Shown piece after piece: positions 3,211 to 55,259 of a DNA stretch of 64,000 bases. The DNA comes from an uncultured Bacilli bacterium. GTDB taxonomy: Bacteria; Bacillota_I; Bacilli_A; RF39; UBA660. The stretch covers positions 1,897-65,896 of the forward strand of contig CANQJD010000001.1 in assembly GCA_947624175.1 (NCBI GenBank), written 5' to 3'. Made by a program: the position numbers and the translations under genes. The notes below the pieces were generated by a model. It had not been told where the DNA came from, ran no database searches, and saw nothing but the letters and a program-made list of their open reading frames with translations. How positions within the stretch are numbered: position 1 is the first letter of the stretch; the number at the start of each line of letters is the position of its first letter.

Positions 3211-6200
3211 CTACTGATTAGCAGTATTTTCATTCAATAAATCAATTAAGTAATAAACAGGATGTTTTTTCAAATTTCGAAGTTTTAAAGAAATATGTAA
3301 TCTTAAATTATGATAACTAAAGTTAAAGTCTCTTGAAATATCATAAGCCCTCATGAATAATTCTTCTCCATTAATAGTTTTTGATTTATCAATTGAGAAA
3401 ATAAGTTCGATACTATCTTTATTAGATATAACTTCTTCAACACCTTTAGATTTAGCAAGTTTTTCAAACCATTCTTGGTACATATAAGTTAATATTTCTT
3501 CACTTGGAGTACCAAATCTATCAGTAAATTCTTCTTTAACACTTACTAACTTCTCATAGCTATCAATCGTGTTAATAAGTTTATGAATTTCAATTTTTAA
3601 GTCACTTTCTTTAGCATATTTATCATCAATATGAGTTGAAACATTGATAAGTGGCTTTTCTTCTTTAACTTCATCTTCAATAGTTTCTTGTCCTTGTAAA
3701 TGTTTAATCTCATCATTTAAAATCTTTAAGTATAAATCAATTCCCATGGTATCAATGAAACCGGCTTGTTCACTTCCTAAAATATCCCCAGCCCCACGAA
3801 TTGATAAGTCCCGACTAGCAATGGCATAACCACTTCCAAGTTCCGTGAACTCCTTTAAAACATTAAGTCTTTTTATGGCTGCTTCTCCTAAAACTTTATG
3901 TTCTTGGTACATTAAATAAGCATAAGCAACTTTATTACTTCTTCCAACTCGTCCTCGTATTTGATATAATTGAGCAAGTCCAAATCTATCAGCATCTAAA
4001 ACGATTAAAGTATTAGCATTAGCAATATCAATTCCAGTTTCAATAATAGTTGTTGATAATAAAATATCATATTCATGATTAATAAACTTTAACATTCGAT
4101 TTTCAAGTTCTATCTTTGATAACTGTCCATGAGCTATAACAATTCTCGCATTTGGAACTAATTTTTGAATTTCAATCATTTTATTTTCAATTGTTTCAAC
4201 CCGATTATATAAAATAAATACTTGTCCATCTCGCATTAATTCTTTATTAATTGCATCTTGAATTAATTGGTCTTGTTCATAGACAACATAAGTTTGAATT
4301 GGAAAACGGTTAACAGGTGGTGTTTTAATAACTGATAAAGACCTAATTCCAACAACTGACATTTGTAAAGTTCTTGGAATTGGGGTTGCTGTTAGAGTTA
4401 AAACATCAACATTCGCTTTATATTGTTTTAATTTTTCTTTATGAGCAACTCCAAATCTCTGTTCTTCATCAATGATTAATAATCCTAAATCTTTAGGTTT
4501 TATATCATCACTTAATAATCTATGCGTTCCAATTACAATATCAACTTCTCCATTTTTAAGTTTATTTATTATTTCATTAACTTTCTTGCTAGTTGTAAAT
4601 CTATTCAAAAGTTCTATATTAACTGGAAAATTTTTAAATCTTTCAAGAGCATTTTGATACTGTTGATTAGAAAGAATCGTGGTTGGACATAAGTAAAGGA
4701 CTTGTTTACCATCATAAACCGCCTTGAACATAGCCCGAAAAGCAACTTCTGTTTTACCAAACCCAACATCACCACATAATAACCTATCCATTGGCTTGTC
4801 TTTTTCCATATCTCTTTTAATTTCTTCATAGGCTGTTAATTGGTCAAGAGTTGGCTCATACATAAATTCATTATAAAATTCTTCATGATACTTGGTATCT
4901 TTTGAAAATGCAAAACCTTTTTGCATTTCTCTTTCTGCATATAATCTAATTAATTTATCAGCAATATCTCTGACTTTACTAATAATTCTTTGTTTATTCT
5001 TTCGCCATTCACTGCTACCTAACCCATTTATTTTAGGTGTTACTCCTTCTCTTCCTGAATATTTACTAATTAAATCAATTTTTTCAACTGGAATATAAAG
5101 TTTATCATCACCTTTATAAAGGATTTCTAAAAAATCTTTCTTTAAAGAATTAACAGTTAAAGTCTTAATACCATTATAAATACCTATACCATTGATACTA
5201 TGAACTATATAATCTCCTACTTCTAATTTGTTGATGTTATTAATCTTCGTTGCATACTTAAACTTCGTTTTATATTTCTTTTTAGTAGGACTAACATTAA
5301 ATAAATCTTTATCAGTTAAAACAACAATATCTTGATAAACAAAACCTTTTGGGAAATCAAAGATAATAATATTTACAATATGGTCTTTTAAATCATTAAT
5401 CGAAGTTTTTACATATGGAACTTCTAGGTATTTTATAAAATTTCTAACTTGATAATCTTTTAAACAAACAACTATTTTTTTATTAGTTCCTAGCATATCT
5501 CTTAAATAGGTATTAATAATATCTATATTTTCATGGAATTTAGGAGCGGTTTTAATATTAAAATTTTGATAACTTGCAAATTCATGATTTGGAATTAAGT
5601 TATCTATACTTAAATAATGTAAGACTTTATCTTTATTGATAATTGAAATTGGAAACATATAGTCTCCATGATAATCAAGGTCATTTTCCTTATAAGTTTT
5701 AATTTCAGTTTGCATTTTATCATAAAGATTTACAAGCATCGTATAATCTTTCACGATGATAAGTGGATTATCTAAATAATCTGCAATATTTTTAGTATCA
5801 TTTAAGTATTCTTTTAAATACTTTTGTTTTCTTTTAGTCTCTTCTAATTTTGAATAATCTTGAAGTAAAAATTCGGTATATGGATAAATAGTTATTTCTT
5901 TAATTTCAGAGATAGATTTTTGAGTTTCTTCATCAAATATTCTAATTGAATCTATCTCATCTCCAAAGAATTCAAAGCGAACTGGATGATTAGATGAAAC
6001 GGGAAATATATCAATTATGAAACCTCGAATGCCGAGTTCACCTGTTGTTGTAACTAGGGTTTCTCGTTTATAACCAAGATTATAAAAATGTTCGGTTAAG
6101 TCTTTAGGATCAATCTCCATCCCTACTTTTAAATTTAAAATATTCTTCCTATAAACACTTTTACTAGGTAAATATCTTAAATACCCCATCATATGGGTAA

Positions 6201-14774: not shown

Positions 14775-15236
14775 TTACTTATTTCTTTGTTCTTTAAAAA
14801 ACTTTTGTAAAATTTCAATACATTTATCTTCTAAAATACCTGTTTTTATTTCAAAACTTGAACTATTTTTATCAGTTTCAAAGATTAAATCTACTATTTT
14901 CTTAAATTTTTGGTCTTGATTAGTAGCACCTACGACAACTTGTTTTATTCTTGATTCTTTGATTGCACTAGCACACATAGGACAAGGAGACATGGTTATA
15001 TATAAAGTGGCATCATTAATTCTCCAATCATGGATTTTATGACTCGCCTTGCGAATTGCTATCATTTCTGCATGATTAGTAATATCATGTGTTTTCTGTC
15101 TTGTATTATGAGCTTTAGCTATAACTTTATCATTTAAAACTAAAACTGCTCCAACTGGTACTTCTTTTTTTTTATAAGCCTTAAAAGCTTCTTTTAAAGC
15201 TAAATTCATATAATATTCATCATTCATATTACACAC
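14775..15236 (-). CDS. tadA: tRNA-specific adenosine deaminase
   Basis: CDA-fold motifs HAEMIAI and PCPMCASA. The start may be the internal MNDEYY. Confidence 0.9.
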   Translation of the reverse strand: MCNMNDEYYMNLALKEAFKAYKKKEVPVGAVLVLNDKVIAKAHNTRQKTHDITNHAEMIAIRKASHKIHDWRINDATLYITMSPCPMCASAIKESRIKQVVVGATNQDQKFKKIVDLIFETDKNSSSFEIKTGILEDKCIEILQKFFKEQRNK

Positions 15237-15247
15237 CTATAAAATAA

Positions 15248-15323
15248 AAGTGCACATAAAAGAGTTATGTTAAGGCTGCTGTCTTCCGACCCTGACCTGG
15301 TTCCATTTCTTTTATTGCACGAG
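15248..15323 (-). ncRNA. ffs: small signal recognition particle RNA (4.5S/scRNA type)
   Basis: The minus strand reads GTGCAATAAAAGA...CCAGGTCAGGGTCGGAAGACAGCAGCC...TCTTTTATGTGCAC. The conserved domain IV motif is flanked by a closing helix formed by the two ends. A TTGCAT-17-TAAAAT promoter lies just upstream on the same strand (about 15329-15357). It sits between tadA and gyrA. The ends are approximate. Confidence 0.8.
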
Positions 15324-15579
15324 TAATATTTTACACTACTTCTTAAATTAATGCAAGTAATTTCTTTCAATTTAAATATTATTTAAAATCATTGTGTCAA
15401 ATTTGTGTTAACTCTATTGACAAGATTTTTTTGTTCATGATATATATAATGTATAATATATGTTTACTAACTCTTGCTATGTTATATAGATGTTTCGCAA
15501 AAAACGGAATTTTCACGAAACATATAGTTTCCTTTATTTATCAAGGATTTATACAAGAAAAAAGATGCTGATTTAAATT

Positions 15580-23638: not shown

Positions 23639-25009
23639 TTACAATAGATTTTGTTTTATTTTATCTACAGTTTCACGGATACTTTTATCTTTTTTTATTT
23701 CTTTTTCTATCTTTTCACAAGCATACATAACGGTAGTATGATCTTTTCCACCAAATTCTAAACCTATTCTTTGATAGGATTCATTTAAAACGTCGCGAGA
23801 TAGAAGCATAGCTATTTGTCTTGGAAATGCAATACTAGCACTTCGCTTTTTTCCTTTTAAATCATCTGATGATATTTGAAAGAAATCTGCAACGACTCTT
23901 TGAATTTTGGCAATATCATTTTTTTCACTGGTTCCTTTACTAACTTCTCCTTTTAAAGCTTCAACGGCTAGTTGTAAGGTTATATCGGCACCTCCCATCA
24001 TCGTTGAATAAATAAGTAATCTATTAATTGCACCTTCAAGTTGTCTTACATCGCTTGTCATATTAGAAGCAATATATTCAATAACTTCTTCTGGGAATGA
24101 TTTATCGATTTTTTCACCATTTATCTTCTTTTTTATTATATTAATTCGAAGTTCTAAATCAGGTGGATAAATATCGACGACGGCACCCCATGTAAACCTG
24201 GTTCGAAGCCTTTCTTCTAAAAGTTTTAAATCATTTGGAGACCTATCTGATGAAATGATTAATTGTTTTTTATTGTCGTGTAATGCAGTAAATGTATGGA
24301 AGAATTCTTGTTGGGTTTGAGTTGCTCTTGCTAAAAATTGAATATCATCAATAATTAAAACATCAATATTTCGGTACTTATCTTTAAAGTATTCAGCATA
24401 ATCATAGTCTTGTTCTTCATTTTTTTCTTTTCGCCCAATGTTTGAAAAATCTGAAATAAACTGTTCACTTGTAACATATAAAACTCGTTTATCAGAATTT
24501 GCTTCGATATAGTTACCAATAGCATGCATTAAATGAGTTTTTCCTAACCCACTATTTCCATAAAGGAACAACGGATTATAAGCAAGACCAGGACTTTCAG
24601 CAACCGCGAATGCCGCCGCATGGGCTAATCTATTACTATTTCCAACCACAAAAGTATCAAAAGTACATTGGGGTTTTAGATTAGATTCATGCCGAAACTT
24701 TTTTGTTTCTTTAACTTGTGGATGTTCAATTTCTTCTTTCTTTTGCTCTTCGATTTTTGATACTTCATCCTCTAATACGAAATCTAAATCATAGATATTT
24801 CCCGTAATATCTGTTAAAGTTTGAATTATAACATCTTGATAAGTTGATTCGATTCTTTGCTTATGGATTATACTTGGTAAAACAATTGTTGCTTTGGTTT
24901 CCGTAATATCTAATAAGTAACTATTTGCAAACCAAGTTGAATATACCATAGAATTAACTTTAGATTGTACCTTTTCTAAGAATTGCTTCCATAAAAGGTC
25001 TTTATTCAT
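23639..25009 (-). CDS. dnaA: chromosomal replication initiator DnaA
   Basis: AAA+ motif (GNSGLGKTHLMHAIGN) and C-terminal DNA-binding domain (GGKDHTTVMYACEKI). I place the start at MNKDLLWKQF (25009) rather than the track start 25042. Confidence 0.93.
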   Translation of the reverse strand: MNKDLLWKQFLEKVQSKVNSMVYSTWFANSYLLDITETKATIVLPSIIHKQRIESTYQDVIIQTLTDITGNIYDLDFVLEDEVSKIEEQKKEEIEHPQVKETKKFRHESNLKPQCTFDTFVVGNSNRLAHAAAFAVAESPGLAYNPLFLYGNSGLGKTHLMHAIGNYIEANSDKRVLYVTSEQFISDFSNIGRKEKNEEQDYDYAEYFKDKYRNIDVLIIDDIQFLARATQTQQEFFHTFTALHDNKKQLIISSDRSPNDLKLLEERLRTRFTWGAVVDIYPPDLELRINIIKKKINGEKIDKSFPEEVIEYIASNMTSDVRQLEGAINRLLIYSTMMGGADITLQLAVEALKGEVSKGTSEKNDIAKIQRVVADFFQISSDDLKGKKRSASIAFPRQIAMLLSRDVLNESYQRIGLEFGGKDHTTVMYACEKIEKEIKKDKSIRETVDKIKQNLL

Positions 25010-25199
25010 TATCCACCTCCTATCATTAATTATCAAAATCACGTATTATAAATGATTATTAATTTGTATAAACCCGTTTTATTCTTTAGTTAAGAGCTTA
25101 TTGAGAATGTCCTCTCTAACTCTTTGTGTTATTATTCTAGTTTATTTTTTATAAAAAAACAATACCTATTGTCAAGTAAAATTAAAAAAAATAAATTAA

Positions 25200-25400
25200 G
25201 AAAAATTGGGAAATAATCCACAATTCATGGTGGAAAACTAGGTGGATTAAAATTTCCCAAAAAAGTTTTCCACATACTTATCCACCGAGTTATCCACATA
25301 TTTTTTTCTTATTTTACAATAAAACTTTAAGGTTTTCCACTTTTCCACAATTTGACTTTTCCACAAGTTAAAAACGTTTTCCACCAAATTGTGGAAAACT
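25200..25400. other. oriC part 1: DnaA-box cluster upstream of dnaA
   Basis: A perfect TTATCCACA lies at 25290-25298. Near-perfect boxes occur at 25214-25222, 25266-25274, 25278-25286, 25341-25349, 25357-25365, 25377-25385 and 25390-25398. Confidence 0.8.
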
Positions 25401-25533
25401 CTCATTTCCCAAAGAAATTTTTCTTTTAAAAAAATTTTTAACTTTACATTTAATAAAAATTGGCTTATTATATTATCATGTTATTTTTAACAGAAATATT
25501 TAGGAGGTCTAAATTTTAGTTTAGAGATTTGGT

Positions 25534-36285: not shown

Positions 36286-38562
36286 ATGGATAAAGAAAAA
36301 AAGGAGAATGAAGTTGTCTATTTAAGATTAGATGATATTCTTCCTAACCAGTTTCAACCACGTGAAGTCTTTGATGAAACCGGACTTCAAGAACTTGCTG
36401 ATTCCATTAAAGAACATGGTGTCATACAACCAGTTATTGTTAGACCTCAAGGAGAGAAGTACGAACTTATAGCTGGAGAGAGACGTTGTAAAGCATCAGC
36501 TCTAGCCGGACTTACCAAAGTACCAGCAATTATCCGGGAAATGGATGATAAAGAAAGTGCTAAAGTATCTTTACTTGAAAATTTACAAAGAAGGAACTTA
36601 AGTGCTATTGAAGAAGCTAGAACTTACAAAAAAATCTTGGAACTTGATAATATGACTCAAGATGAACTTGCTAAAACAATGGGAAAAAGTCAACCAATGA
36701 TTGCTAATAAAATAAGACTTTTAGGTCTGCCTGAAGAAGTTCAAGATGCTTTAATTAAAAATCAAATTTCGGAACGTCATGCCAGGAGTTTATTAAATGT
36801 TAAAAATAAAGAACAACAGTTGATGATGTTAGATAGAATTCGAAATGAAAGATTAACCGTTAGGGAACTTGATGCTGAAATTAAAAAATTAGTTCAACCA
36901 ATTGATCCTAATGAAATTATAAATCAAGAGAGTTCTATGCAAGAAGAAAAAAAAGAGGAAGCAAATGAAGGAGGTGTAGATATGCAACAAAATATGATGA
37001 ATGGTAATATGAATAATAATTTTAATAACAATAATAATATGACTCAAGAATTTAATAATGCAAATAATAATACTTTTAATGATAGCAATATGAATATGGG
37101 AATGCCATCTAATATGAGTGAGCCTATTCCTCAAAATAATCAATTTGGAAATACTCAAAACTTATATGGTAATTTCAGCAATATGGGCTTAAATGATTAT
37201 CAAGGAAGTGGTATGTTTAATAATATTCCAAACTTTAACAATCAAAATATGCAAAATACATCCCCTCTTCCAACTTTTCAAGGAGGATTCTCTAATCCAT
37301 CAACTAATAACTCTAATGAAGGAAATACGTCTTTTATTGAATCACAACCTAATATATCTAATAATATAAATGATAATCGTTTAAATGAGATACCAGGTTT
37401 CAATGATACTCCTTCAAATTCTGATACACCTAATAAAAATTTTAATTCTTTAGGTTCAATGTTTGATGGAAATCCTAACAGTAATAATAATCAAAATCTG
37501 GCTCCTGATTATACAAACGACAATAATAATTCTAATACATTCATTAGTCAAATAAGAGAAGATACTATTAAGCCAAAAGAAAATCAATTCTTACCAAATT
37601 TTGATACACCTAATAACTTTGATAATCAAAATAACTTTAATGATATGTCTAATATGAATAATTTTGATAGTCAAAATGATTTTGGAATGAATAATTTTAT
37701 TAATCAAAGTCAAAATCAAAATACATTTAATGACTTTAATAATAACAATAATATGAACAATATGAATAATGATTTTAGTAATCCAGGTTTAAATAATTTT
37801 GGTGGACCAATTAATGATTTTTCATTTCCTCAAAATAATAATAACAATATGCCATTTAATATGCCTTCAAATAATTTTAATGCTAATCAAGGGGGGTTAT
37901 TTAATCAACCTCTTAACATAGTAAGTGTTCCTGGTAGTGATATGAATAATAATCCAGAAGAAAATGAAAATTCAAAGGACAATGGTCATTTTGATTATGA
38001 AAATGCTAGTCAAAATAATTCAGATGAAAATACTGAATCAGAAAACAATATGCAATCTAACGATGATGAATCTACTGATGAAGAATCTAATGATAAAGAA
38101 AATTTTGATAATCCATTAGATGATGCTTATGAAGATATTTTAAATGTTAAACCAGTAGCAGTTAATCCTGATGAAGAGAAACAAGAAGAAAGTGATGCTG
38201 ATAAAGAAGAGACAAAAGAACAAAGTGAAGATAGTGATACTTCTGAAACAGAGAGTGAAGATACTAGTGAAGAAGTTGAAGTAATTGGAGGTGATTCACC
38301 TTCTGGAGATACTGAAACTAAAGAAAATACAAATGAAACTTCAGAAAAACAAGATTACAAAGAAGATAGTAAAGAAGAAGATAATAAAAAGAAAGATGAT
38401 TATATTCATCTAGAACCAGAAAAAACTATCTTTGATGCAAGAGGTGCTGTTTATGAACTTAAGAAAACAACCGATGCTATTAAACTAAACAATATAAATA
38501 TTGATACCGAAGAAATAGAATTCGATGACTATTATCAAATTACTATCAAAATCAAAAAATAA
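36286..38562 (+). CDS. ParB/Noc-family protein with a very long Asn-rich and acidic low-complexity region
   Basis: The N-terminal ~200 aa form a ParB N-domain plus HTH (GERRCKAS arginine patch, LLENLQRRNLS). It occupies the noc position between rsmG and soj. Residues ~205-690 are low complexity. Confidence 0.8.
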   Translation: MDKEKKENEVVYLRLDDILPNQFQPREVFDETGLQELADSIKEHGVIQPVIVRPQGEKYELIAGERRCKASALAGLTKVPAIIREMDDKESAKVSLLENLQRRNLSAIEEARTYKKILELDNMTQDELAKTMGKSQPMIANKIRLLGLPEEVQDALIKNQISERHARSLLNVKNKEQQLMMLDRIRNERLTVRELDAEIKKLVQPIDPNEIINQESSMQEEKKEEANEGGVDMQQNMMNGNMNNNFNNNNNMTQEFNNANNNTFNDSNMNMGMPSNMSEPIPQNNQFGNTQNLYGNFSNMGLNDYQGSGMFNNIPNFNNQNMQNTSPLPTFQGGFSNPSTNNSNEGNTSFIESQPNISNNINDNRLNEIPGFNDTPSNSDTPNKNFNSLGSMFDGNPNSNNNQNLAPDYTNDNNNSNTFISQIREDTIKPKENQFLPNFDTPNNFDNQNNFNDMSNMNNFDSQNDFGMNNFINQSQNQNTFNDFNNNNNMNNMNNDFSNPGLNNFGGPINDFSFPQNNNNNMPFNMPSNNFNANQGGLFNQPLNIVSVPGSDMNNNPEENENSKDNGHFDYENASQNNSDENTESENNMQSNDDESTDEESNDKENFDNPLDDAYEDILNVKPVAVNPDEEKQEESDADKEETKEQSEDSDTSETESEDTSEEVEVIGGDSPSGDTETKENTNETSEKQDYKEDSKEEDNKKKDDYIHLEPEKTIFDARGAVYELKKTTDAIKLNNINIDTEEIEFDDYYQITIKIKK

Positions 38563-38694
38563 ATTAAAAATTATTGATTACTAAAGAAAATCTTGGTAAT
38601 TAATAATTTTTTTGTATAAAGTTAGTAAATACCTTTGCTTATTCTGTCGTTTTTTGATAAAATATATTTGACAACATTTAAAGAAGGTGTAATC

Positions 38695-39480
38695 ATGGGA
38701 AAAATTATTTCATTAGTAAATCAAAAAGGAGGAGTTGGTAAGACAACAACTAGTATTAATCTAGCCGCTTCCCTTGCCTTACTTGGTAAGAATGTTTTAC
38801 TACTTGATTTAGACCCACAAGGCAATGCGACAACGGGTGTAGGAATTAACAAAGGTGATATTCAAAAAAGTATCTACGATTTATTAAGAGGAGATGCAAG
38901 TATTGAAGAAGTTATAGTTAAAACCGATTTTAGAAATCTTGATATTGTACCAGCAACGATTCAACTTGCGGGAATTGATATTGAATTAATGGAAAAAAGT
39001 AGAAATGATCCAAACTTTAAAAGGTCTCATCAATTAAAAACAAAAATAGAGTCTATTAAAAATAACTATGATTATTTGATTATTGATTGTCCTCCAAGTC
39101 TAGGTATGATTACAACTAATGCCTTAACAGCTAGTAATTCCGTTATAATTCCGGTTCAATGTGAATTTTATGCCTTAGAAGGAATTACTCAATTATTAAA
39201 TACAATTATGCTTGCTCAAAAGAACTTGAATCCTCATTTAGAACTTGAAGGTGTTCTTTTAACAATGCTTTCCAAATCTAATTTAGGACTTGATGTAATC
39301 GAGGAAATTAGAAGTTATTTTAAAGATAAAGTGTATGATACTATCATACCAAGATTAATTAGGCTTGCTGAAGCACCTAGTCATGGTAAGCCAATCGTTG
39401 CTTATGATCCTAAAAGTAAAGGGTCTGAAGCGTATATAAATTTAGCAAAGGAAGTGATAATGCGTAATGGAAACTCCTAG
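38695..39480 (+). CDS. soj: ParA/Soj chromosome partitioning ATPase
   Basis: Deviant Walker A (NQKGGVGKTTT). The start is placed at MGKIISL (38695). Confidence 0.92.
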   Translation: MGKIISLVNQKGGVGKTTTSINLAASLALLGKNVLLLDLDPQGNATTGVGINKGDIQKSIYDLLRGDASIEEVIVKTDFRNLDIVPATIQLAGIDIELMEKSRNDPNFKRSHQLKTKIESIKNNYDYLIIDCPPSLGMITTNALTASNSVIIPVQCEFYALEGITQLLNTIMLAQKNLNPHLELEGVLLTMLSKSNLGLDVIEEIRSYFKDKVYDTIIPRLIRLAEAPSHGKPIVAYDPKSKGSEAYINLAKEVIMRNGNS

Positions 39481-45290: not shown

Positions 45291-47009
45291 ATGGAAGAAA
45301 AAACTAAAAATAATAAGAAAGGTGTAATAATAGCAGGAATAAGTGCAATAGTCTTAATCGCAACCGTTGGAGTATCATTTGCTATTTGGAATTATTTGAG
45401 AGTTGGAGAAAACCAATTGTTAGTTGCTGGAGATATTTATATGAAATTCACGGAATCTAATCAAATAACAATTGAAAATGCCTTACCAAGTGAAGGGCCA
45501 GGCGAAAAATATTTTGAATTTAAAATAGAAGGAAAGAATACCTATAGTAAACCAATTTGGTATGAAATAGACTTACTACATGGAGATGATGACGAGACAA
45601 GAAAAACAAGAATAAAAGATAACTTATTAGCTTTTAAATTAGTAGAAGTTAAAGATGAAAATCAAGAAGAAGTACTAATAGAAAACGGAAGTTATACAGG
45701 ATTAGCAGCCGGAAAAGGAATATATGTAAATACTATACCAGCAGGAACAAAGGACAAAATAATAAGAACTTATAGATTATATATGTGGATATCAAGCAAA
45801 ACAGTAATAGGAAATACCGACGATGCAATCTATGACATGGATACTTGGAATGATGTCTTTGCAAGTATTAAAGTAAATGTAACGGGAGACTTTAATGAAA
45901 AAGAATTACCAACCCCATCAGCAACAGATGTAGTGAAAGATACATTAGGACTACCTGGCGGAGTAATTGGGGTAACAAATGAGAATACATCAACTAAAAC
46001 TGAAAGTGAAAATATAAGAGAATATAGATATTCAGGAACAAATGTAAATAATTATATCTACTTTAATTGTGAAGCTGATGCGACAAAAGAAGATGCAAGT
46101 AGTAAATGTGAATTATGGAGAATAATTGGAGTATTTACAGACAGCAAAGGTGAACATTTAAAAATAGTAAGAGATAATGTGCTATCTGCAGATATGTTTC
46201 CTGAAACTTATACAGTAGATGGTAGAGAATATTATCTAAATAAGGCTATGATAGCTACAGCATTTCCAAACAAAAAATATAGTGTAAAAAAATTAATAGT
46301 TCCAAATAATACAAAAGCAACAATTGAAAAACTTGATTATGAGGAAGTAGGTATGGCAAATTGGAATTATCCAACTGATTACAATTATAATAACGACTGG
46401 GCAACAGCCGGATTACAATATTGGCTAAATACAACAGCTGATGATAATAGTAGAAACCAAGGTTATTTAAGTACATTAAAAGGAAATACTTTAAGTATGA
46501 TAGAAGATACAGAGTATTATTTAGGAACACAAATGTATAATGATGATACAATAAATTCCTTTAAAAATGAAAGAGATGTAAAAAGTTGTCCTGAAAATAC
46601 CGGAACAGTAGAATATTATGAAGATTCAGCAAATTCTGGATGTAATGTATATGCTGGAAATAAAGCAACGTGGACAGGAAAAATAGCATTAATGTATCCT
46701 TCAGATTATGGATTCACTGCCAATAGTACATATTGGACTGGTACTGGATTATCTGATTATTATGATAGAGCTGCCTATACAAGTTGGTTACAAACAACAG
46801 CAAACCATAGTACATACGAATGGCTTTTGTCCCCTTCCTCTGGCAACTCTTATGGTGTGGCTGGCTGGGTCAGCGACGGCGGTGTGGACGACAGCGGTGT
46901 CGGCAACCTCGGGGCGGTGCGGCCAAGTCTTAATCTGAAATCCAATACAAATATTACAGGGGGTGATGGAAGTAAATTGAAACCATACTTTGTAAATTCG
47001 GGACAATAG
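45291..47009 (+). CDS. DGR target protein: N-terminally membrane-anchored surface protein with C-terminal variable region
   Basis: N-terminal TM segment (GVIIAGISAIVLIATVGVSFAIW). The C-terminus WLLSPSSGNSYGVAGWVSDGGVDDSGVGNLGAVRPSL is encoded by the VR. A paralogue lies at 53694..55259. Confidence 0.85.
   Translation: MEEKTKNNKKGVIIAGISAIVLIATVGVSFAIWNYLRVGENQLLVAGDIYMKFTESNQITIENALPSEGPGEKYFEFKIEGKNTYSKPIWYEIDLLHGDDDETRKTRIKDNLLAFKLVEVKDENQEEVLIENGSYTGLAAGKGIYVNTIPAGTKDKIIRTYRLYMWISSKTVIGNTDDAIYDMDTWNDVFASIKVNVTGDFNEKELPTPSATDVVKDTLGLPGGVIGVTNENTSTKTESENIREYRYSGTNVNNYIYFNCEADATKEDASSKCELWRIIGVFTDSKGEHLKIVRDNVLSADMFPETYTVDGREYYLNKAMIATAFPNKKYSVKKLIVPNNTKATIEKLDYEEVGMANWNYPTDYNYNNDWATAGLQYWLNTTADDNSRNQGYLSTLKGNTLSMIEDTEYYLGTQMYNDDTINSFKNERDVKSCPENTGTVEYYEDSANSGCNVYAGNKATWTGKIALMYPSDYGFTANSTYWTGTGLSDYYDRAAYTSWLQTTANHSTYEWLLSPSSGNSYGVAGWVSDGGVDDSGVGNLGAVRPSLNLKSNTNITGGDGSKLKPYFVNSGQ
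46822..46927 (+). repeat. DGR variable repeat (VR)
   Basis: Gap-free 106-nt alignment to 49009-49114 with 22 mismatches, all at TR adenines. The 3' end, GGGCGGTGCGGCCAAG, is IMH-like. Confidence 0.92.
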
Positions 47010-47040
47010 GTTTCCGCGCGGAATAAGAACCGCGGGAAAC
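47010..47040 (+). other. GC-rich hairpin directly after the target gene stop codon
   Basis: gtttcc(g)cgcgg / ccgcgggaaac forms an 11-bp stem with one bulge and an 8-nt loop. An alternative pairing is tccgcgc (47013-47019) with gcgcgga (47043-47049). Confidence 0.6.
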
Positions 47041-47109
47041 GGGCGCGGATTTACATAAAATATCAATTAAAGCAGTAACTGTCGAAGACAGAGATTTATA
47101 TTTATTAGG

Positions 47110-47131
47110 TTGGCACGCGAATGCGTGCCAA
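47110..47131 (+). other. perfect 9-bp GC-rich hairpin (ttggcacgc-gaat-gcgtgccaa)
   Basis: Seen directly in the sequence. No T-run follows it. Confidence 0.6.
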
Positions 47132-47181
47132 ACCACCACCTTTGAAAAACATAAGACATAAAGTCAAAAAATAGATAAAAC

Positions 47182-47568
47182 ATGGAAGAAAGGAATATTG
47201 TTAATAATATGAATATTATTAAGATAAGAAAAAGTGGGACTTTCTATAGTGTCTTTGATGATGACTGCTATATATTGTATTTTTTGTTAGGTTATCAAAT
47301 AAATAATAGTAAAGTAGGATTTCCAAAATCAGCTCTTAATAAAGTAATTAATATATTAGAAGAAAATAAAATTAATTATGAAATAATAGGAGAAGATAGG
47401 AAGCAAAACTTTAAAACATTAAATAGATATGAAAAATTTGTTAAAATTGGAAAAGAAAAATATAGTAAAGATAGTCATTATGAAGACTTAATAGATAAAT
47501 TAAAATGTACTACACCAGAGAAATTAGATAAAATATTATTGACTATTGAAACTATTTTAAATGAATGA
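47182..47568 (+). CDS. small MutS-domain-I-like protein (DGR accessory, MSL-like)
   Basis: IKIRKSGTFYSVFDDDCYILYFLLGY...KVGFPKSALNKVINILEENKINYEII parallels the MutS N-terminal mismatch-binding domain (GDFYELFYDDA...AGIPYHAVENYLAKLV...VAICEQ). Its stop overlaps the Avd start by 8 nt. Confidence 0.55.
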   Translation: MEERNIVNNMNIIKIRKSGTFYSVFDDDCYILYFLLGYQINNSKVGFPKSALNKVINILEENKINYEIIGEDRKQNFKTLNRYEKFVKIGKEKYSKDSHYEDLIDKLKCTTPEKLDKILLTIETILNE

Positions 47569-47902
47569 AGAAAAATTTATTGTTGCTAAACATATAAAAG
47601 AATTTATAATGATGCTTGATGATTATTTAATTAATTATCCAAGAAAATATTATGAACTTCGAAATAGATTAGTAAATGATAGTTATGAATTATTAGAAAT
47701 TATTTATACGGCTAATTATATGGAAGTTGAAGAAAGAAAAAGTTTACAAGTTAAAGGTATTATGAAAATTAGTTTAATTGATTTTTATATAGAACAAAGT
47801 TTTAAGAAAAGGATAATAAGTGAAAAACAGTCTATTAGATTAAGTAAGAAGTTATTAAATATTAATAAATTATTAAGAAGTTGGTATGAATATAAATATT
47901 AA
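47561..47902 (+). CDS. avd: Avd-like accessory variability determinant (four-helix-bundle family)
   Basis: 113 aa, helical and basic, translationally coupled to the RT by a 17-nt overlap. Size and position are typical of Avd. The family call is from memory of the pattern only. Confidence 0.6.
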   Translation: MNEEKFIVAKHIKEFIMMLDDYLINYPRKYYELRNRLVNDSYELLEIIYTANYMEVEERKSLQVKGIMKISLIDFYIEQSFKKRIISEKQSIRLSKKLLNINKLLRSWYEYKY

Positions 47903-48986
47903 AGATATAATGGATATCTATGATTTAGAGATTAGAAAGAATTGTCGGAATAAGAGAAAAGTTTATGTATTTGAAAAGAATAAGATGCAAAATATCATAG
48001 ATATTTATAATGAACTTACTAATATGAGTTATTATCCTAGTAAATATAATATCTTTATAATTAGAGAACCAAAGTATAGAATAGTAATGTCTTTAAAAAT
48101 AAAAGACAAAGTTATTAATCATTATTTAGCAAGATATGTTTTAATACCTAAATTAGATAAATATTTAGATATGAGAATAGTTGCAACTAGAAAAGGTTAT
48201 GGAACTGATTATGGAATTAAATTAGTTAAAAAATATATAGAAATTAATAAGAAATATGGAAAGTTTTATATACTAAAAATAGATATTAAGAAATATTTTT
48301 ATAATATAGACCATGAAGTATTAAAGAGTTTACTTGAAAGTAAATTAGATAGTAATGAATATACATTAATTAGTAGAATAATCGATAGTACGAATAGTAG
48401 TTATATAAATTCTGACATTGATAAAGAAGTTAGGAATATGATTGAAAAAAGACCATATGATAAAGATAAGTTACTAGATTTACCAAGATATAATGAAGGA
48501 AAAGGACTAGGACTTGGTGCTATGACAAGTCAGTTTTTATCAATATATTATTTATCTAAATTAGACCATTATATAATCCATGATTTACATTTAAAATATA
48601 TGGTACATTATATGGATGATATAATAATAATTCATCATGATAAAGAATATTTATATGAAGCTTTAAGTAAAATAGAAAAAATAATCCATGATGTATATAA
48701 ATTAGATGTTAATAAAAAGAAAACCAAGATAGTAAGTAGTAAAGAAGGATTTTGTTTTTTAGGATATCGATTTATAGTTAGAAATAATAAAACAATTATG
48801 AAGATAAAGAGAGATACTATAACTAAAATAAAAAGAAGAGTTAAAGAAGTTAAATATTTATATAGTAATAATAAAATAAGTTTTGAGAGATGTTTTTCAA
48901 GTATTAATACTTATCTTTATAGTTTTAAATATACAAGTAATTTTAAAGTAGTAAAAATAGTAAATAAGTATTTTTTTAAAGGGTAG
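47886..48986 (+). CDS. DGR-type reverse transcriptase
   Basis: RT motifs include YMDDIIII (YxDD) and GLGLGAMTSQFLSIYYL, which carries the [ILV]GxxxSQ signature of DGR RTs. No maturase, endonuclease or retron msr/msd context. Confidence 0.9.
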   Translation: MNINIKDIMDIYDLEIRKNCRNKRKVYVFEKNKMQNIIDIYNELTNMSYYPSKYNIFIIREPKYRIVMSLKIKDKVINHYLARYVLIPKLDKYLDMRIVATRKGYGTDYGIKLVKKYIEINKKYGKFYILKIDIKKYFYNIDHEVLKSLLESKLDSNEYTLISRIIDSTNSSYINSDIDKEVRNMIEKRPYDKDKLLDLPRYNEGKGLGLGAMTSQFLSIYYLSKLDHYIIHDLHLKYMVHYMDDIIIIHHDKEYLYEALSKIEKIIHDVYKLDVNKKKTKIVSSKEGFCFLGYRFIVRNNKTIMKIKRDTITKIKRRVKEVKYLYSNNKISFERCFSSINTYLYSFKYTSNFKVVKIVNKYFFKG

Positions 48987-49008
48987 GATAAATATAAAAT
49001 GGTTGTCG

Positions 49009-49114
49009 GGCTTTTGTCCCCTTCCTCTAACAACTCTAATAATGTGGCTAACTGGAACAACGACGGCAATGTGAACAACAACAATGTCAACAACAACAGG
49101 GCGGTGCGGCCAAG
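49009..49114 (+). repeat. DGR template repeat (TR)
   Basis: Begins 22 nt after the RT stop. Read in the VR frame it is a run of AAC/AAT codons: LLSPSSNNSNNVANWNNDGNVNNNNVNNNRAVRP. Confidence 0.92.
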
Positions 49115-49580
49115 CCCTTTATAATTAGAATATTGGATTAAGGTTTAATATGTATATGTAAAGGACAATCCTATCCGTGATTTTATCAGAAGGGAAATAT
49201 AGATAACTTGGTATACGTACTTAAGTTTAGAACTATATATGAGTAAATATAATAGATATTTGTTTTGTAAAAGGTTATATAATTGTTATTTAATATTAAT
49301 AATAGATAAAGATAAAATAATAAGTTTTGATGAAGATTTAAAAATAATAGAATTATATGGAATAGAAACAATAAAGCAGGAAATTAATTATTTAATATTA
49401 GATGGTTTAAATATTAAATTATATAAAAATAATAATAACTATTTTTACTACTTTAAGATTAGTTTGATTAAAGATATTATAGATTACATTATGACTATTA
49501 ATTAGTCTTTTTTTTATAAAAATTAAAAAAAGGTCTTAACTAATCTCGTTTTTATGGTATACTTATAATAGGAGAAAAAT

Positions 49581-53693: not shown

Positions 53694-55259
53694 ATGAAAA
53701 GAAGAAATGTAATTATATTAATGATATCACTTAGTTTAGTCTTGTTATTAGGTTCTAGTTATGCTCTTTTAAGAAGTAGTCAAGTTGGTAGTAATCCTTA
53801 TGTAATTAATGTAGGAACATTACAAGTAACCTTTGAGGAAGGTAAAACTGAAAAATTGAACTTAGAAAATATGTATCCGATGAGTGATAAGGAAGGAATC
53901 AGTCAATCTGATGAATTAGGATTTACAGTTAAGAATACCGGAACAGTCGCTTCGTACTATGATGTATATATAGAAGAAACAAGTACCACTCCTGAATTTA
54001 AAAGTGTTATAAGATTTATAAGTAATAAAGATAATCAAGGATATAATGAACCTAAAACATTAAGTGAAGATAAGAATATAGATGTAGGAGGATATTTAAA
54101 GGCTAATGAAAGTAGTAGTTATAAAGTAAAAATTTGGTTAGATTATAATGCAGACAATACCTATATGGATAAGACTTTTACAGCGAAAGTTTTAGTAAAT
54201 AGTTTTCAAGAAAGCAAGTATGCAAAAGATGTAATTAAGAGTAAATTAGTAAAATATTCTGAATCAAGTAAAGAAAATTTTGAAGGTGGACTAATTGCTG
54301 TTAATACTGATGGGGATTTATATAATGAAACTATTGCTAGTGAAACGATAAGAGAATATAGATATTCTGGGCTAACTGTTAATAACTATGTAACTTTTAA
54401 TGATGAGACTTGGAGAATAATTGGAGTATTTCCTGATGAAGTAGGACAAGAACACATTAAAATCGTACGAAATGAAATATTAAGTGGAATATTTCCTGAA
54501 AGTTACAAAATTAATGAAATAACCTATAAAATAAAAGGTGATAGTGAAAATTATACTTATAAAAATTATATTACTGGTACTTATTCAGACAATAGTGACT
54601 GGGCAACAGCTGGATTGCAATATTGGTTAAATACTAAAAGTGATGCTGATGGAATCAATAAAGGTTATTTAAATTATTTGAGTGAAGATAATTTTAATAT
54701 GATAGAAGAAACAAAATATTATTTAGGTGCAGTAACTGCTAATCATGAAGGAAGTATAGTTTTAATCGATACCCCAAAAGATGCGTATAAATATGAGAGA
54801 GCAGTTGGTGGATGTGAAGCGAATAAAGGTTCGACAGAAAATAATAGTGCAATTCAAATAGAATCAAATGCAACCTGTCGAGTATGGGTAAACAATAATG
54901 CAACCTGGAAAGGTAAAATTGCTTTATTATATCTAAGTGATTATGGTTATAGTGCTAATAGCAAATATTGGGAAACATCATTGGGACTTAATTCATTTGA
55001 TAAAGATCCAGTCAATACAACTTGGCTTTCAAAACCTATAAATATTTCAATAAATGAATGGCTTTTATCACCTACAACTCATACTACAAATACTTATACA
55101 ACATCGCTTGTTTCTCGTTGGAATATGAGTGGCTTTGGTTCTACAAGAAGTGTTTTTTATGCTGATAGTGTTCTTAGACCTTGTGTTTACTTAAAGTCAA
55201 ATGTAAAAATAACATCAGGTGATGGAACATTTGAAAATCCATATGATTTGACTTATTGA
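53694..55259 (+). CDS. non-diversified paralogue of the DGR target protein
   Basis: Shares these blocks with 45291..47009: IREYRYSG.(T)VNNY, WRIIGVF, H(L/I)KIVRN, DWATAGLQYWLNT, ATW.GKIAL.Y.SDYG, EWLLSP, (V/L)RP...LKSN..IT.GDG. The VR-equivalent DNA (about 55060-55200) is AT-rich and does not match TR. Confidence 0.8.
   Translation: MKRRNVIILMISLSLVLLLGSSYALLRSSQVGSNPYVINVGTLQVTFEEGKTEKLNLENMYPMSDKEGISQSDELGFTVKNTGTVASYYDVYIEETSTTPEFKSVIRFISNKDNQGYNEPKTLSEDKNIDVGGYLKANESSSYKVKIWLDYNADNTYMDKTFTAKVLVNSFQESKYAKDVIKSKLVKYSESSKENFEGGLIAVNTDGDLYNETIASETIREYRYSGLTVNNYVTFNDETWRIIGVFPDEVGQEHIKIVRNEILSGIFPESYKINEITYKIKGDSENYTYKNYITGTYSDNSDWATAGLQYWLNTKSDADGINKGYLNYLSEDNFNMIEETKYYLGAVTANHEGSIVLIDTPKDAYKYERAVGGCEANKGSTENNSAIQIESNATCRVWVNNNATWKGKIALLYLSDYGYSANSKYWETSLGLNSFDKDPVNTTWLSKPINISINEWLLSPTTHTTNTYTTSLVSRWNMSGFGSTRSVFYADSVLRPCVYLKSNVKITSGDGTFENPYDLTY

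Follow-up and report, generated by a model that had tools for sequence, protein, structure and literature searches.

The 64,000-nt stretch of DNA analysed here, called the window throughout, comes from contig CANQJD010000001.1 of an uncultured Bacilli bacterium (GenBank assembly GCA_947624175.1) and carries on its plus strand the cassette of a diversity-generating retroelement (DGR). Hypermutation aimed at one particular gene is rare in nature; DGRs, one of the few systems capable of it, are currently being adapted as tools for directed evolution. The cassette begins with a target gene of 572 aa (45291..47009), whose product is predicted to have an N-terminal membrane anchor, an acidic ectodomain (pI 4.7) and a C-terminal DUF6273-like domain that includes the variable repeat (VR, 46822..46927). 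It continues with the genes of Msl, a MutS-domain-I-like accessory protein of 128 aa (pI 7.7; 47182..47568), of the Avd accessory protein (113 aa, pI 9.3; 47561..47902) and of a 366-aa reverse transcriptase (RT, 47886..48986). The template repeat (TR, 49009..49114) and a segment of structured RNA resembling 'Sp' (49115..49205) come next, followed by a fifth cassette gene of 88 aa (49239..49505), here called orf88 or Msl2, which was recognized by its conservation and by a profile-profile match to Msl. An earlier reading of this DNA, the original prediction, had announced a complete chromosomal DGR in the order target, MutS-like open reading frame (ORF), Avd, RT and TR. All of these parts were recovered; what the prediction omitted was orf88, the structured RNA beside the TR and the fact that the Msl architecture is already known. 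We consider it very probable that the locus is a complete, chromosomally resident, Msl-containing DGR of an uncultured low-GC gut Bacilli bacterium, operating by the mechanism proposed below. Eighty related loci with the same cassette were found in metagenome-assembled genomes (MAGs) of gut Bacilli; among public genomes, the nearest is an 'uncultured Bacilli' MAG from rabbit gut, with an RT of 95% identity. The window offers a very clean and compact chromosomal DGR from a poorly known uncultured lineage, with dozens of relatives for comparison.

The TR and VR, each 106 nt long, aligned without gaps and differed at 22 positions, in exact agreement with the alignment of the original prediction. 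All 22 mismatches fell on TR adenines (18 A>G, 3 A>T and 1 A>C), and realignment, proposed at the time as a check, revealed no difference at any non-adenine position over the 106 nt. Given the 34 adenines of the TR, the probability that 22 random mismatches would all hit adenines is 1.8e-14. The similarity ends at both borders of the 106 nt, and a search pattern with N at every TR adenine matched only the TR and VR sites in the 64-kb window, with no match in 100 shuffles. The TR starts 22 nt past the RT stop codon (48986), as had been read before, while the VR covers residues 511-546 of the 572-aa target, inside the 3′ end of its ORF as predicted. All 22 changes affect codon positions 1 or 2 of this ORF. 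Read in the same frame, the TR runs ...SSNNSNNVANWNNDGNVNNNNVNNNRAVRPS and comprises 16 AAY codons, the AAC/AAT run that had been noticed, together with one GAC and one AGG; its coding capacity amounts to up to ~5e18 peptides, none of them interrupted by a stop codon. Both repeats end in a GC-rich 17-mer, which gives the VR a 3′ end resembling an initiation of mutagenic homing (IMH) element, GGGGCGGTGCGGCCAAG, and the bases that follow diverge (VR, TCTTAATCT; TR, CCCTTTATA). The GC content is 66% in the VR and 48% in the TR, 31% in the remainder of the target gene and 20% in the RT gene; in AT-rich genomes, such a local GC spike makes VRs easy to spot by eye. The adenine bias is shared by the family: across 22 related loci, 369 of 400 TR/VR mismatches were at TR adenines (A>G 48%, A>T 38% and A>C 14%).

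The protein encoded by 47886..48986 is an RVT_1 reverse transcriptase with the YMDD and LGAMTSQ motifs that had been taken for a DGR signature. Its closest solved relative in the PDB is the RT of the Bordetella phage DGR (8ub7, E 5e-20), in which LGAMTSQ aligns with IGSLTSQ and YMDD with YMDD; its PHROG RT match reached 4e-72. The Avd-sized ORF said to be coupled to the RT gene did match Avd models over their full length (PHROG 'Avd protein of DGR', 4.5e-11; Pfam bAvd, 2e-6; NCBIfam DivGenRetAVD, 1.5e-7). Counting against this assignment, the Pfam and NCBIfam matches fall under the curated cut-offs; searched alone against PDB sequences, the ORF found no match. Its first 8 nt overlap msl and its last 17 nt the RT gene. 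Could the RT belong to another prokaryotic class, such as the retrons, group II intron maturases or defence RTs like DRT3, and the repeats be an unrelated duplication? NCBIfam did yield sub-threshold matches to group_II_RT_mat (90.9 bits, cut-off 300) and Drt3a (51.9 bits, cut-off 200), and some of the phage relatives, whose RTs are ≤ 35% identical to that of the window, are annotated as 'retron-type'. However, the Bordetella phage enzyme leads the Cas6-RT-Cas1 and group II RTs of the PDB (E 1.7e-5 or worse) by 15 orders of magnitude, Avd adjoins the RT, and the adenine-only TR/VR pattern (P ~2e-14) and the RNA flanking the TR, which agrees with DGR priming architecture, are those of a DGR; Rfam showed neither an intron RNA nor a retron ncRNA, even at E ≤ 1. 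We regard membership in another RT class as effectively refuted already.

The known elements closest to this cassette are the Msl-containing DGRs. According to Wu et al. (2018, NAR 46:11, PMC5758913), 'MSL/Msl' occurs in 16 of 372 DGRs, always with avd, in what is termed Architecture D, as proteins of 112-283 aa with a pI of 7.2 ± 1.7; a preprint (bioRxiv 10.1101/2024.11.15.621889) places Msl also in the Bfr, Bth and Bun DGRs of Bacteroides. The window cassette has the composition of Architecture D, a small MutS-like gene together with Avd, and no HRDC match was found in Pfam and phmmer scans of the cassette ORFs. Judged from its modelled fold, the 128-aa ORF is the published accessory protein. 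As in the Msl-DGRs described in these sources, including those of Bacteroides, one strand encodes the RT, Avd and a small MutS-like protein of neutral pI, and the VR is in the 3′-terminal part of a gene for a surface protein. In contrast to what the same sources describe, the host is a low-GC uncultured member of the Bacilli, and the target is a membrane-anchored, DUF6273-like protein rather than a type V pilus tip. The cassette also shares much with the DGR of Bordetella phage BPP-1 (mtd-avd-TR-brt), namely a homologous RT (5e-20) with IGxxxSQ and YMDD motifs, Avd, adenine-only changes and a GC-rich VR 3′ end. It departs from the target-avd-TR-brt arrangement of BPP-1 in its gene order (target-Msl-Avd-RT-TR), in possessing Msl proteins and in being chromosomal rather than phage-borne. 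No new principle emerges from the locus, which belongs to a known type of system; the second small MutS-like gene, previously unremarked, is its only unusual part.

Structured RNA around the template repeat

Comparison of the related loci uncovered conserved elements on both sides of the TR. Upstream, at a distance of ~20 nt, the loci share GGGTA(A/G); downstream, they have in common the string GCCCTTTAT-(variable)-GATTAAGGTT-(variable)-TAAAGGACA-(T)TATCC. In the window, the structured segment of 49115..49205 is predicted to begin with helix P1 (49116-49121 with 49159-49164, from RNAalifold), which encloses helix P2 (49130-49134 with 49147-49151, plus 49136-49138 with 49143-49145) capping the conserved GATTAAGGTT. 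P1 is followed by an invariant ACA linker (49165-49167), by the 3′ strand of a long-range duplex (49168-49176) and by a short hairpin, P3 (49178-49188), whose stem sequence varies among loci, before the segment ends in an A-rich tail. The 5′ strand of the long-range duplex, GGGTAGGAT, lies across the RT stop codon at 48981..48989 and would be the analogue of the 'cPRT Stop' of the Bordetella element; we refer to this helix as the stop duplex.

These helices covary. RNAalifold reported compensatory changes in 11 of the 14 pairs of P1 and P2, and in 27 of 27 loci the invariant ACA is followed by 9-11 nt that pair with the GGGTA region on the upstream side of the TR, the covarying variants of the stop duplex including GGGTAGGAT/ATCCTATCC, GGGTAAATGAT/ATCATTTATCC, TAGGCAGTCTT/AAGGCTGTCTA and AGGGAAATTTC/GAAATTTTCCT. 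In a formal count over 23 loci, the 23 pairs of the three helices were paired in 97.2% of cases, compared with 36-50% when the partners were slid; both sides had changed in a compensatory manner in 17 of the 23 pairs, and none of 500 shuffles reached the observed covariation score. P3, for which the MAFFT alignment was inconsistent, was excluded from this count and compared locus by locus. The stop duplex itself (helix 1) was 99.5% paired, with both-side changes in six of its nine pairs; this pairing score is inflated, since the helix was found by a best-duplex search, which takes some weight from the structural argument, although the position of the helix and its GGGTA core are constant. Rfam contains no family matching the TR-flanking RNA or the hairpins of the locus, either at the gathering threshold or at E ≤ 1.

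The arrangement recalls the solved complex of RT, Avd and RNA from Bordetella, in which a TR:Sp duplex with the priming A56 is followed by the 'cPRT Stop', a layout that was predicted for many DGRs (Handa et al., bioRxiv 10.1101/2023.10.23.563531; PDB 8ub7). By analogy, the helices around the TR of the window match the cis-priming duplex and the 'cPRT Stop' in their order, and would serve the same functions. As in the BPP-1 RNA, a primer duplex between the TR and downstream sequence is followed by a short linker (3 nt here), a duplex of upstream with downstream sequence, a short stem-loop and adenosines; unlike in BPP-1, the upstream strand of the stop duplex is located at the end of the RT gene and not at the end of avd. 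The covarying helices thus provide independent comparative support for a cis-priming and 'cPRT Stop' architecture that has so far been solved only for the Bordetella phage element.

With these parts in place, standard mutagenic retrohoming is the most likely mechanism. An RNA covering ~48981-49205, reaching from the end of the RT gene through the TR and the structured segment downstream, would be made and bound by the RT-Avd complex. The segment behind the TR would fold back through pairing of UAAAGG (49159-49164) with CCUUUA (49116-49121) and set the invariant GGACA beside the 3′ end of the TR, where the cDNA would be primed in cis. The RT would then copy the TR, misincorporating opposite its adenines, until it meets the duplex GGGUAGGAU/AUCCUAUCC, which lies ~20 nt before the TR and would halt synthesis. 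The cDNA would finally replace the VR, whereby the 16 AAY positions and two others alone would be re-randomized, in the presumed C-terminal lectin-like domain of a membrane-anchored surface protein. Msl and Msl2 would most likely bind the mismatch-dense cDNA:VR heteroduplex and so prevent a return to the parental sequence through host mismatch repair.

In five of the related loci, a motif made up of the TR end and the downstream RNA occurs in two to four tandem copies (L017, at 2383, 3041 and 4005; L018, at 7619, 8267, 8714 and 9046; L019, at 3090 and 3374; L005, at 2128 and 4348; L063, at 540, 916 and 1658). This suggests arrays of several TRs that are served by one RT.

Msl and orf88, a probable second MutS-like protein

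Direct sequence searches with the 128-aa Msl ORF (Pfam, NCBIfam, phmmer against the PDB, and a 27-sequence profile against the PDB) gave nothing relevant. In contrast, an AlphaFold model computed with 26 homologues had a predicted local distance difference test (pLDDT) score of 89, and its best 50 Foldseek matches in the PDB were all domain I of MutS/MSH proteins. The model superposed on domain I of MutS from E. coli, Taq and human homologues with a root mean square deviation of 1.2-2 Å over 60-68 columns. The relation to MutS domain I thus became visible through the structure model and Foldseek, where sequence searches alone had failed to reveal it; Pfam MutS_I is present in two distant Msl homologues. 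These results bear out the label 'MutS-like' that had been given to this ORF.

Like MutS/MSH domain I (PF01624), Msl has the Gly and Phe of the GxFYE motif: in its version, G19-T-F21-Y-S, the mismatch-binding Phe of MutS is kept, and neither G19 nor F21 varies among 27 homologues. Conservation does not extend to the Glu of the Phe-X-Glu motif. Msl is predicted to consist of an isolated domain I followed by two long helices, and it lacks connector, clamp and ATPase domains. Proteins of the MutS family proper have several domains, with Phe-X-Glu, a clamp and an ABC ATPase; in both Msl and orf88 the resemblance is limited to domain I, and neither protein reaches the Pfam threshold directly. Hidden Markov model (HMM) searches detected Msl in 55 of 81 sources, directly upstream of Avd, and orf88 in 59 of 81.

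The conservation of orf88 was first shown by tblastn of the cassette proteins against the 80 related loci. Its reading frame is intact in ~38 of them, with variable length and 32-62% identity, and of the loci with ≥ 47% RT identity to the window, only four short contigs lack one or both of Msl and orf88. Searched with an orf88 profile, 1.84 billion representative proteins yielded 122 clusters at 50% identity; nearly all of the family members have 40-130 aa, one has 210 aa, and none attains the length of a full MutS. When a 114-sequence orf88 profile was compared with the Msl family in hhalign, the match had a probability of 93% (E 2.7e-7). Weak matches to Pfam MutS_I, far more numerous than those to any other family, occurred in 19 of the 114 members, and the ones examined individually all placed residues 3-47 on profile positions 3-45 in the same register. 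Where Msl has its Phe, orf88 aligns a conserved Lys (K26). Judging by these profile comparisons, we conclude with moderate confidence that orf88 encodes a second, more degenerate MutS-domain-I-like protein. A gene of this kind, ~90 aa in length, sets the cassette apart from the Msl-DGRs in the accessible portions of the published descriptions, although it may be one of the 'potential accessory genes' of Wu et al.

We also weighed whether 49239-49505 might not be protein-coding, being instead a chance ORF in AT-rich sequence or the 3′ part of the DGR RNA. The ORF is short (88 aa), AT-rich and rich in Ile, Asn, Tyr and Lys, no obvious Shine-Dalgarno sequence precedes it, and its AlphaFold model, from a shallow 15-sequence alignment, is unusable (pLDDT 44). 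Moreover, orf88 itself had no Pfam, PHROG or PDB match, and profiles of 33 and of 114 sequences found nothing meaningful among PDB sequences. Such a non-coding origin is nevertheless very improbable: the frame has stayed intact in ~38 loci despite identities down to 32% and variation in length, the 122 profile clusters are nearly all small stand-alone proteins, and the profile-profile similarity to Msl is strong. The covarying RNA, furthermore, stops ~35 nt before the start codon of orf88. The gene is found after the TR-Sp region, after the RT gene or before msl, yet always on the cassette strand. The notion that orf88 always travels with the TR turned out to be only partly right, as several loci have the TR upstream of msl while orf88 is still downstream of the RT gene. 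Two kinds of variants were seen: three loci (L017-L019) have an extra, weakly Msl-like ORF after orf88, and in strain L001 (CANQMV010000003.1) the middle of orf88 is absent (64 aa).

What the two proteins might do is suggested by work on Bacteroides, where host MutS is reported to cut retrohoming 5-10 fold in an all-or-nothing manner (bioRxiv 10.1101/2024.11.15.621889). This effect of MutS makes an anti-repair role plausible. The simplest inference, by analogy, is that Msl, perhaps as a pair with Msl2, protects the mismatch-rich heteroduplex from repair by binding to it, which would depend on the host having mismatch repair. Many reduced-genome Bacilli lack mutS and mutL; in such a host an anti-repair role would be unlikely, and the proteins might instead stabilize the heteroduplex or anneal the cDNA strand, for example. 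A more specific and rather doubtful proposal is that Msl, which has kept the Phe, and Msl2, which has lost it, form a heterodimer copying the asymmetric pair of domains I in a MutS dimer or in MSH6/MSH2. Such a pair would be a minimal mismatch sensor on the cDNA:VR heteroduplex that blocks host mismatch repair or steers resolution to the cDNA strand. If this were true, the element itself would encode a step of mutagenic retrohoming dedicated to countering repair, and a large clade of DGRs in gut Bacilli would have conserved it. The presence of two MutS-domain-I-like proteins in a cassette, together with the suppression of retrohoming by MutS, makes the role of Msl directly testable through pairing of the two proteins, their binding to mismatched heteroduplexes and protection from repair.

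The target gene and variation of its repeat

The target protein had no direct match in Pfam or the PDB, and a profile of its family found nothing meaningful among PDB sequences. The family is large, with 2521 matches among 8000 candidates scored. Residues 368-570 of the target are 38% identical to a stretch of the homologue P0068 that matches Pfam DUF6273 from end to end, and DUF6273 has been described as a C-lectin-like domain targeted by DGRs in gut phages (PMC10743442). By transitive homology through P0068 and from this literature, the C-terminus of the target is probably DUF6273-like and of C-type-lectin-like fold. A paralogue of the target is encoded nearby, at 53694-55259 on the plus strand (521 aa); it is 38% identical over residues 211-566 and has the same C-terminal domain with the frame 'EWLLSP...RP..YLKS'. 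The paralogue may once have been a target and have decayed since, or it may be a copy that is not diversified. We considered a second target for the TR in the window and rejected it, the sole paralogue having no TR-matching segment. The DUF6273-like family, along with a non-diversified relative close by, may point to what these reduced-genome gut bacteria need to recognize.

Directly after the target stop codon, 83 nt past the VR, lies a bulged GC-rich hairpin (GTTTCC-G-CGCGG/CCGCG-GGAAAC, 47010..47040, plus strand) without a T-run. A two-part bulged stem of differing sequence follows the target stop codon in ~15 related loci. The hairpin was not called as a terminator, and the GC-rich hairpins of the locus are not terminator-like. 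In Bordetella, target recognition needs a hairpin/cruciform at the VR, and phage examples are 4-34 nt from the VR and have GRNA tetraloops (PMC3240598). By analogy, the hairpin at 47010-47040 may be a candidate counterpart of this target-site element; its distance of 83 nt, its 8-nt loop and the lack of a GRNA tetraloop, all unlike the phage hairpins, speak against such a role. A second GC-rich hairpin, TTGGCACGC-GAAT-GCGTGCCAA, is located between the target gene and msl (47110..47131, plus strand), and related loci also have a second strong hairpin at the equivalent place.

To judge whether the element is active, we compared the window with short contigs from other samples (L081-L086), which were found by exact-protein look-ups. 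Over 2.7 kb, three substitutions separate the near-identical contig L081 from the window, and two of these are at VR sites corresponding to TR adenines (46888 and 46897; P ~5e-4). Contig L086, which is ~97% identical and whose flanks differ by ~3%, had ~19 adenine-site differences in the VR, accompanied by four non-adenine substitutions and an indel. Three of these four substitutions equal the TR sequence of strain L001, the outcome to be expected if VRs follow their own TRs. A VR that stays invariant across relatives while the flanks vary had been named in the original prediction as an outcome that would speak against a DGR; the adenine-site differences of L081 and L086 came out in favour of one.

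Two observations weigh against current activity. First, the L081 contig has low coverage (~2.3x) and a 19-nt deletion in the RT gene, so its VR differences could be errors, though a bias to adenine sites would not be expected of errors. Second, in three other contigs from the same study (L082-L084), the VR is identical to that of the window, indicating that turnover is not fast. Both can be enlisted for the view that the element is a fossil, which once diversified its VR and is now silent or very rarely active, the TR/VR pattern being a historical record: the VR is the same in the window and three independent metagenome contigs, and the sole near-clonal difference comes from the 2.3x-coverage contig. 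The dominance of A>G in the window VR (18 of 22, compared with 48% across the family) could likewise reflect a long-selected, fixed sequence. Against a fossil, all five ORFs are intact and translationally coupled, with the catalytic YMDD present, and every RNA helix is intact. The non-adenine positions of TR and VR are 100% identical over 106 nt, as would follow from ongoing homing, without which the repeats would be expected to drift apart. Furthermore, two of the three differences of L081 hit adenine sites, which suggests recent activity. We therefore consider a fossil unlikely; on the comparison of these sequences, the element is probably functional and active, with modest turnover.

Several contigs had unusual structures. 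The 19-nt deletion of L081, at the equivalent of 48185-48203, would shift the frame of the RT gene and may be either an assembly error or the mark of an inactivated copy. L001, the closest MAG contig, has no target gene and breaks off ~300 nt before msl; a VR that is heterogeneous in the population would produce such a break, but this is only suggestive. In L085 (43-2100; ENA ERZ27249041), from a strain of 98% identity, an IS256-type transposase (Pfam Transposase_mut, in two ORFs) is directly upstream of msl, by the equivalent of 47157, where the window has the target gene and its hairpins. This arrangement reflects either an insertion or rearrangement that separated target and cassette, or a chimeric contig. 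In L058, the RT gene is split by an insert of ~3.4 kb, its parts lying at 1252-1881 and 5297-5764 (query residues 2-211 and 209-365); the insert may be a mobile element.

Chromosomal setting

The GC content of the window is 25-30%. A block with dnaA (23639-25042), dnaN, recF and gyrB occupies 18.3-25.0 kb on the minus strand. At ~25 kb, the GC skew changes from -0.25 to +0.28 and gene orientation switches, with all large ORFs to the right being on the plus strand, which places oriC at ~25.1-25.5 kb, in the region 25043-25533 beside dnaA. The cassette starts 20 kb to the right of oriC and its target points away from it, consistent with the core-chromosome location that had been proposed on the basis of the sequence. 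In E. coli, DGR editing works best near oriC and on targets co-directional with replication (PMC12875486); the position of the cassette fits the position of efficient editing there, as a correlation only.

The flanks consist of housekeeping genes, encoding a YchF-like GTPase (outside the Pfam scan), a zinc-ribbon membrane protein, a radical SAM protein, VanY, an unannotated protein of 795 aa and the leucyl-tRNA synthetase LeuRS, with ParA/ParB further to the left. The radical SAM and VanY-type neighbours of the original prediction were thus found again, and, as it had stated, no phage or integrase genes were present among the flanking ORFs scanned against Pfam. PHROGs held no family for the target, Msl or orf88. 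Genes for YchF, radical SAM or VanY also adjoin the cassette in some of the divergent relatives, which suggests a long chromosomal residence.

A promoter scan of the window gave 46 promoter-like sites compared with 36.5 expected, and promoter and terminator scans are uninformative at 27% GC. The ParB-like protein is unusually long (36286-38562, plus strand; 758 aa), its ParB_N and HTH_ParB domains being contained in the first ~200 residues, and the ParA gene is located at 38635-39480. Rfam detected two housekeeping RNAs in the window, both on the minus strand: a T-box leader at 699-886 (105.7 bits) and a small bacterial signal recognition particle RNA at 15234-15331 (57.7 bits).

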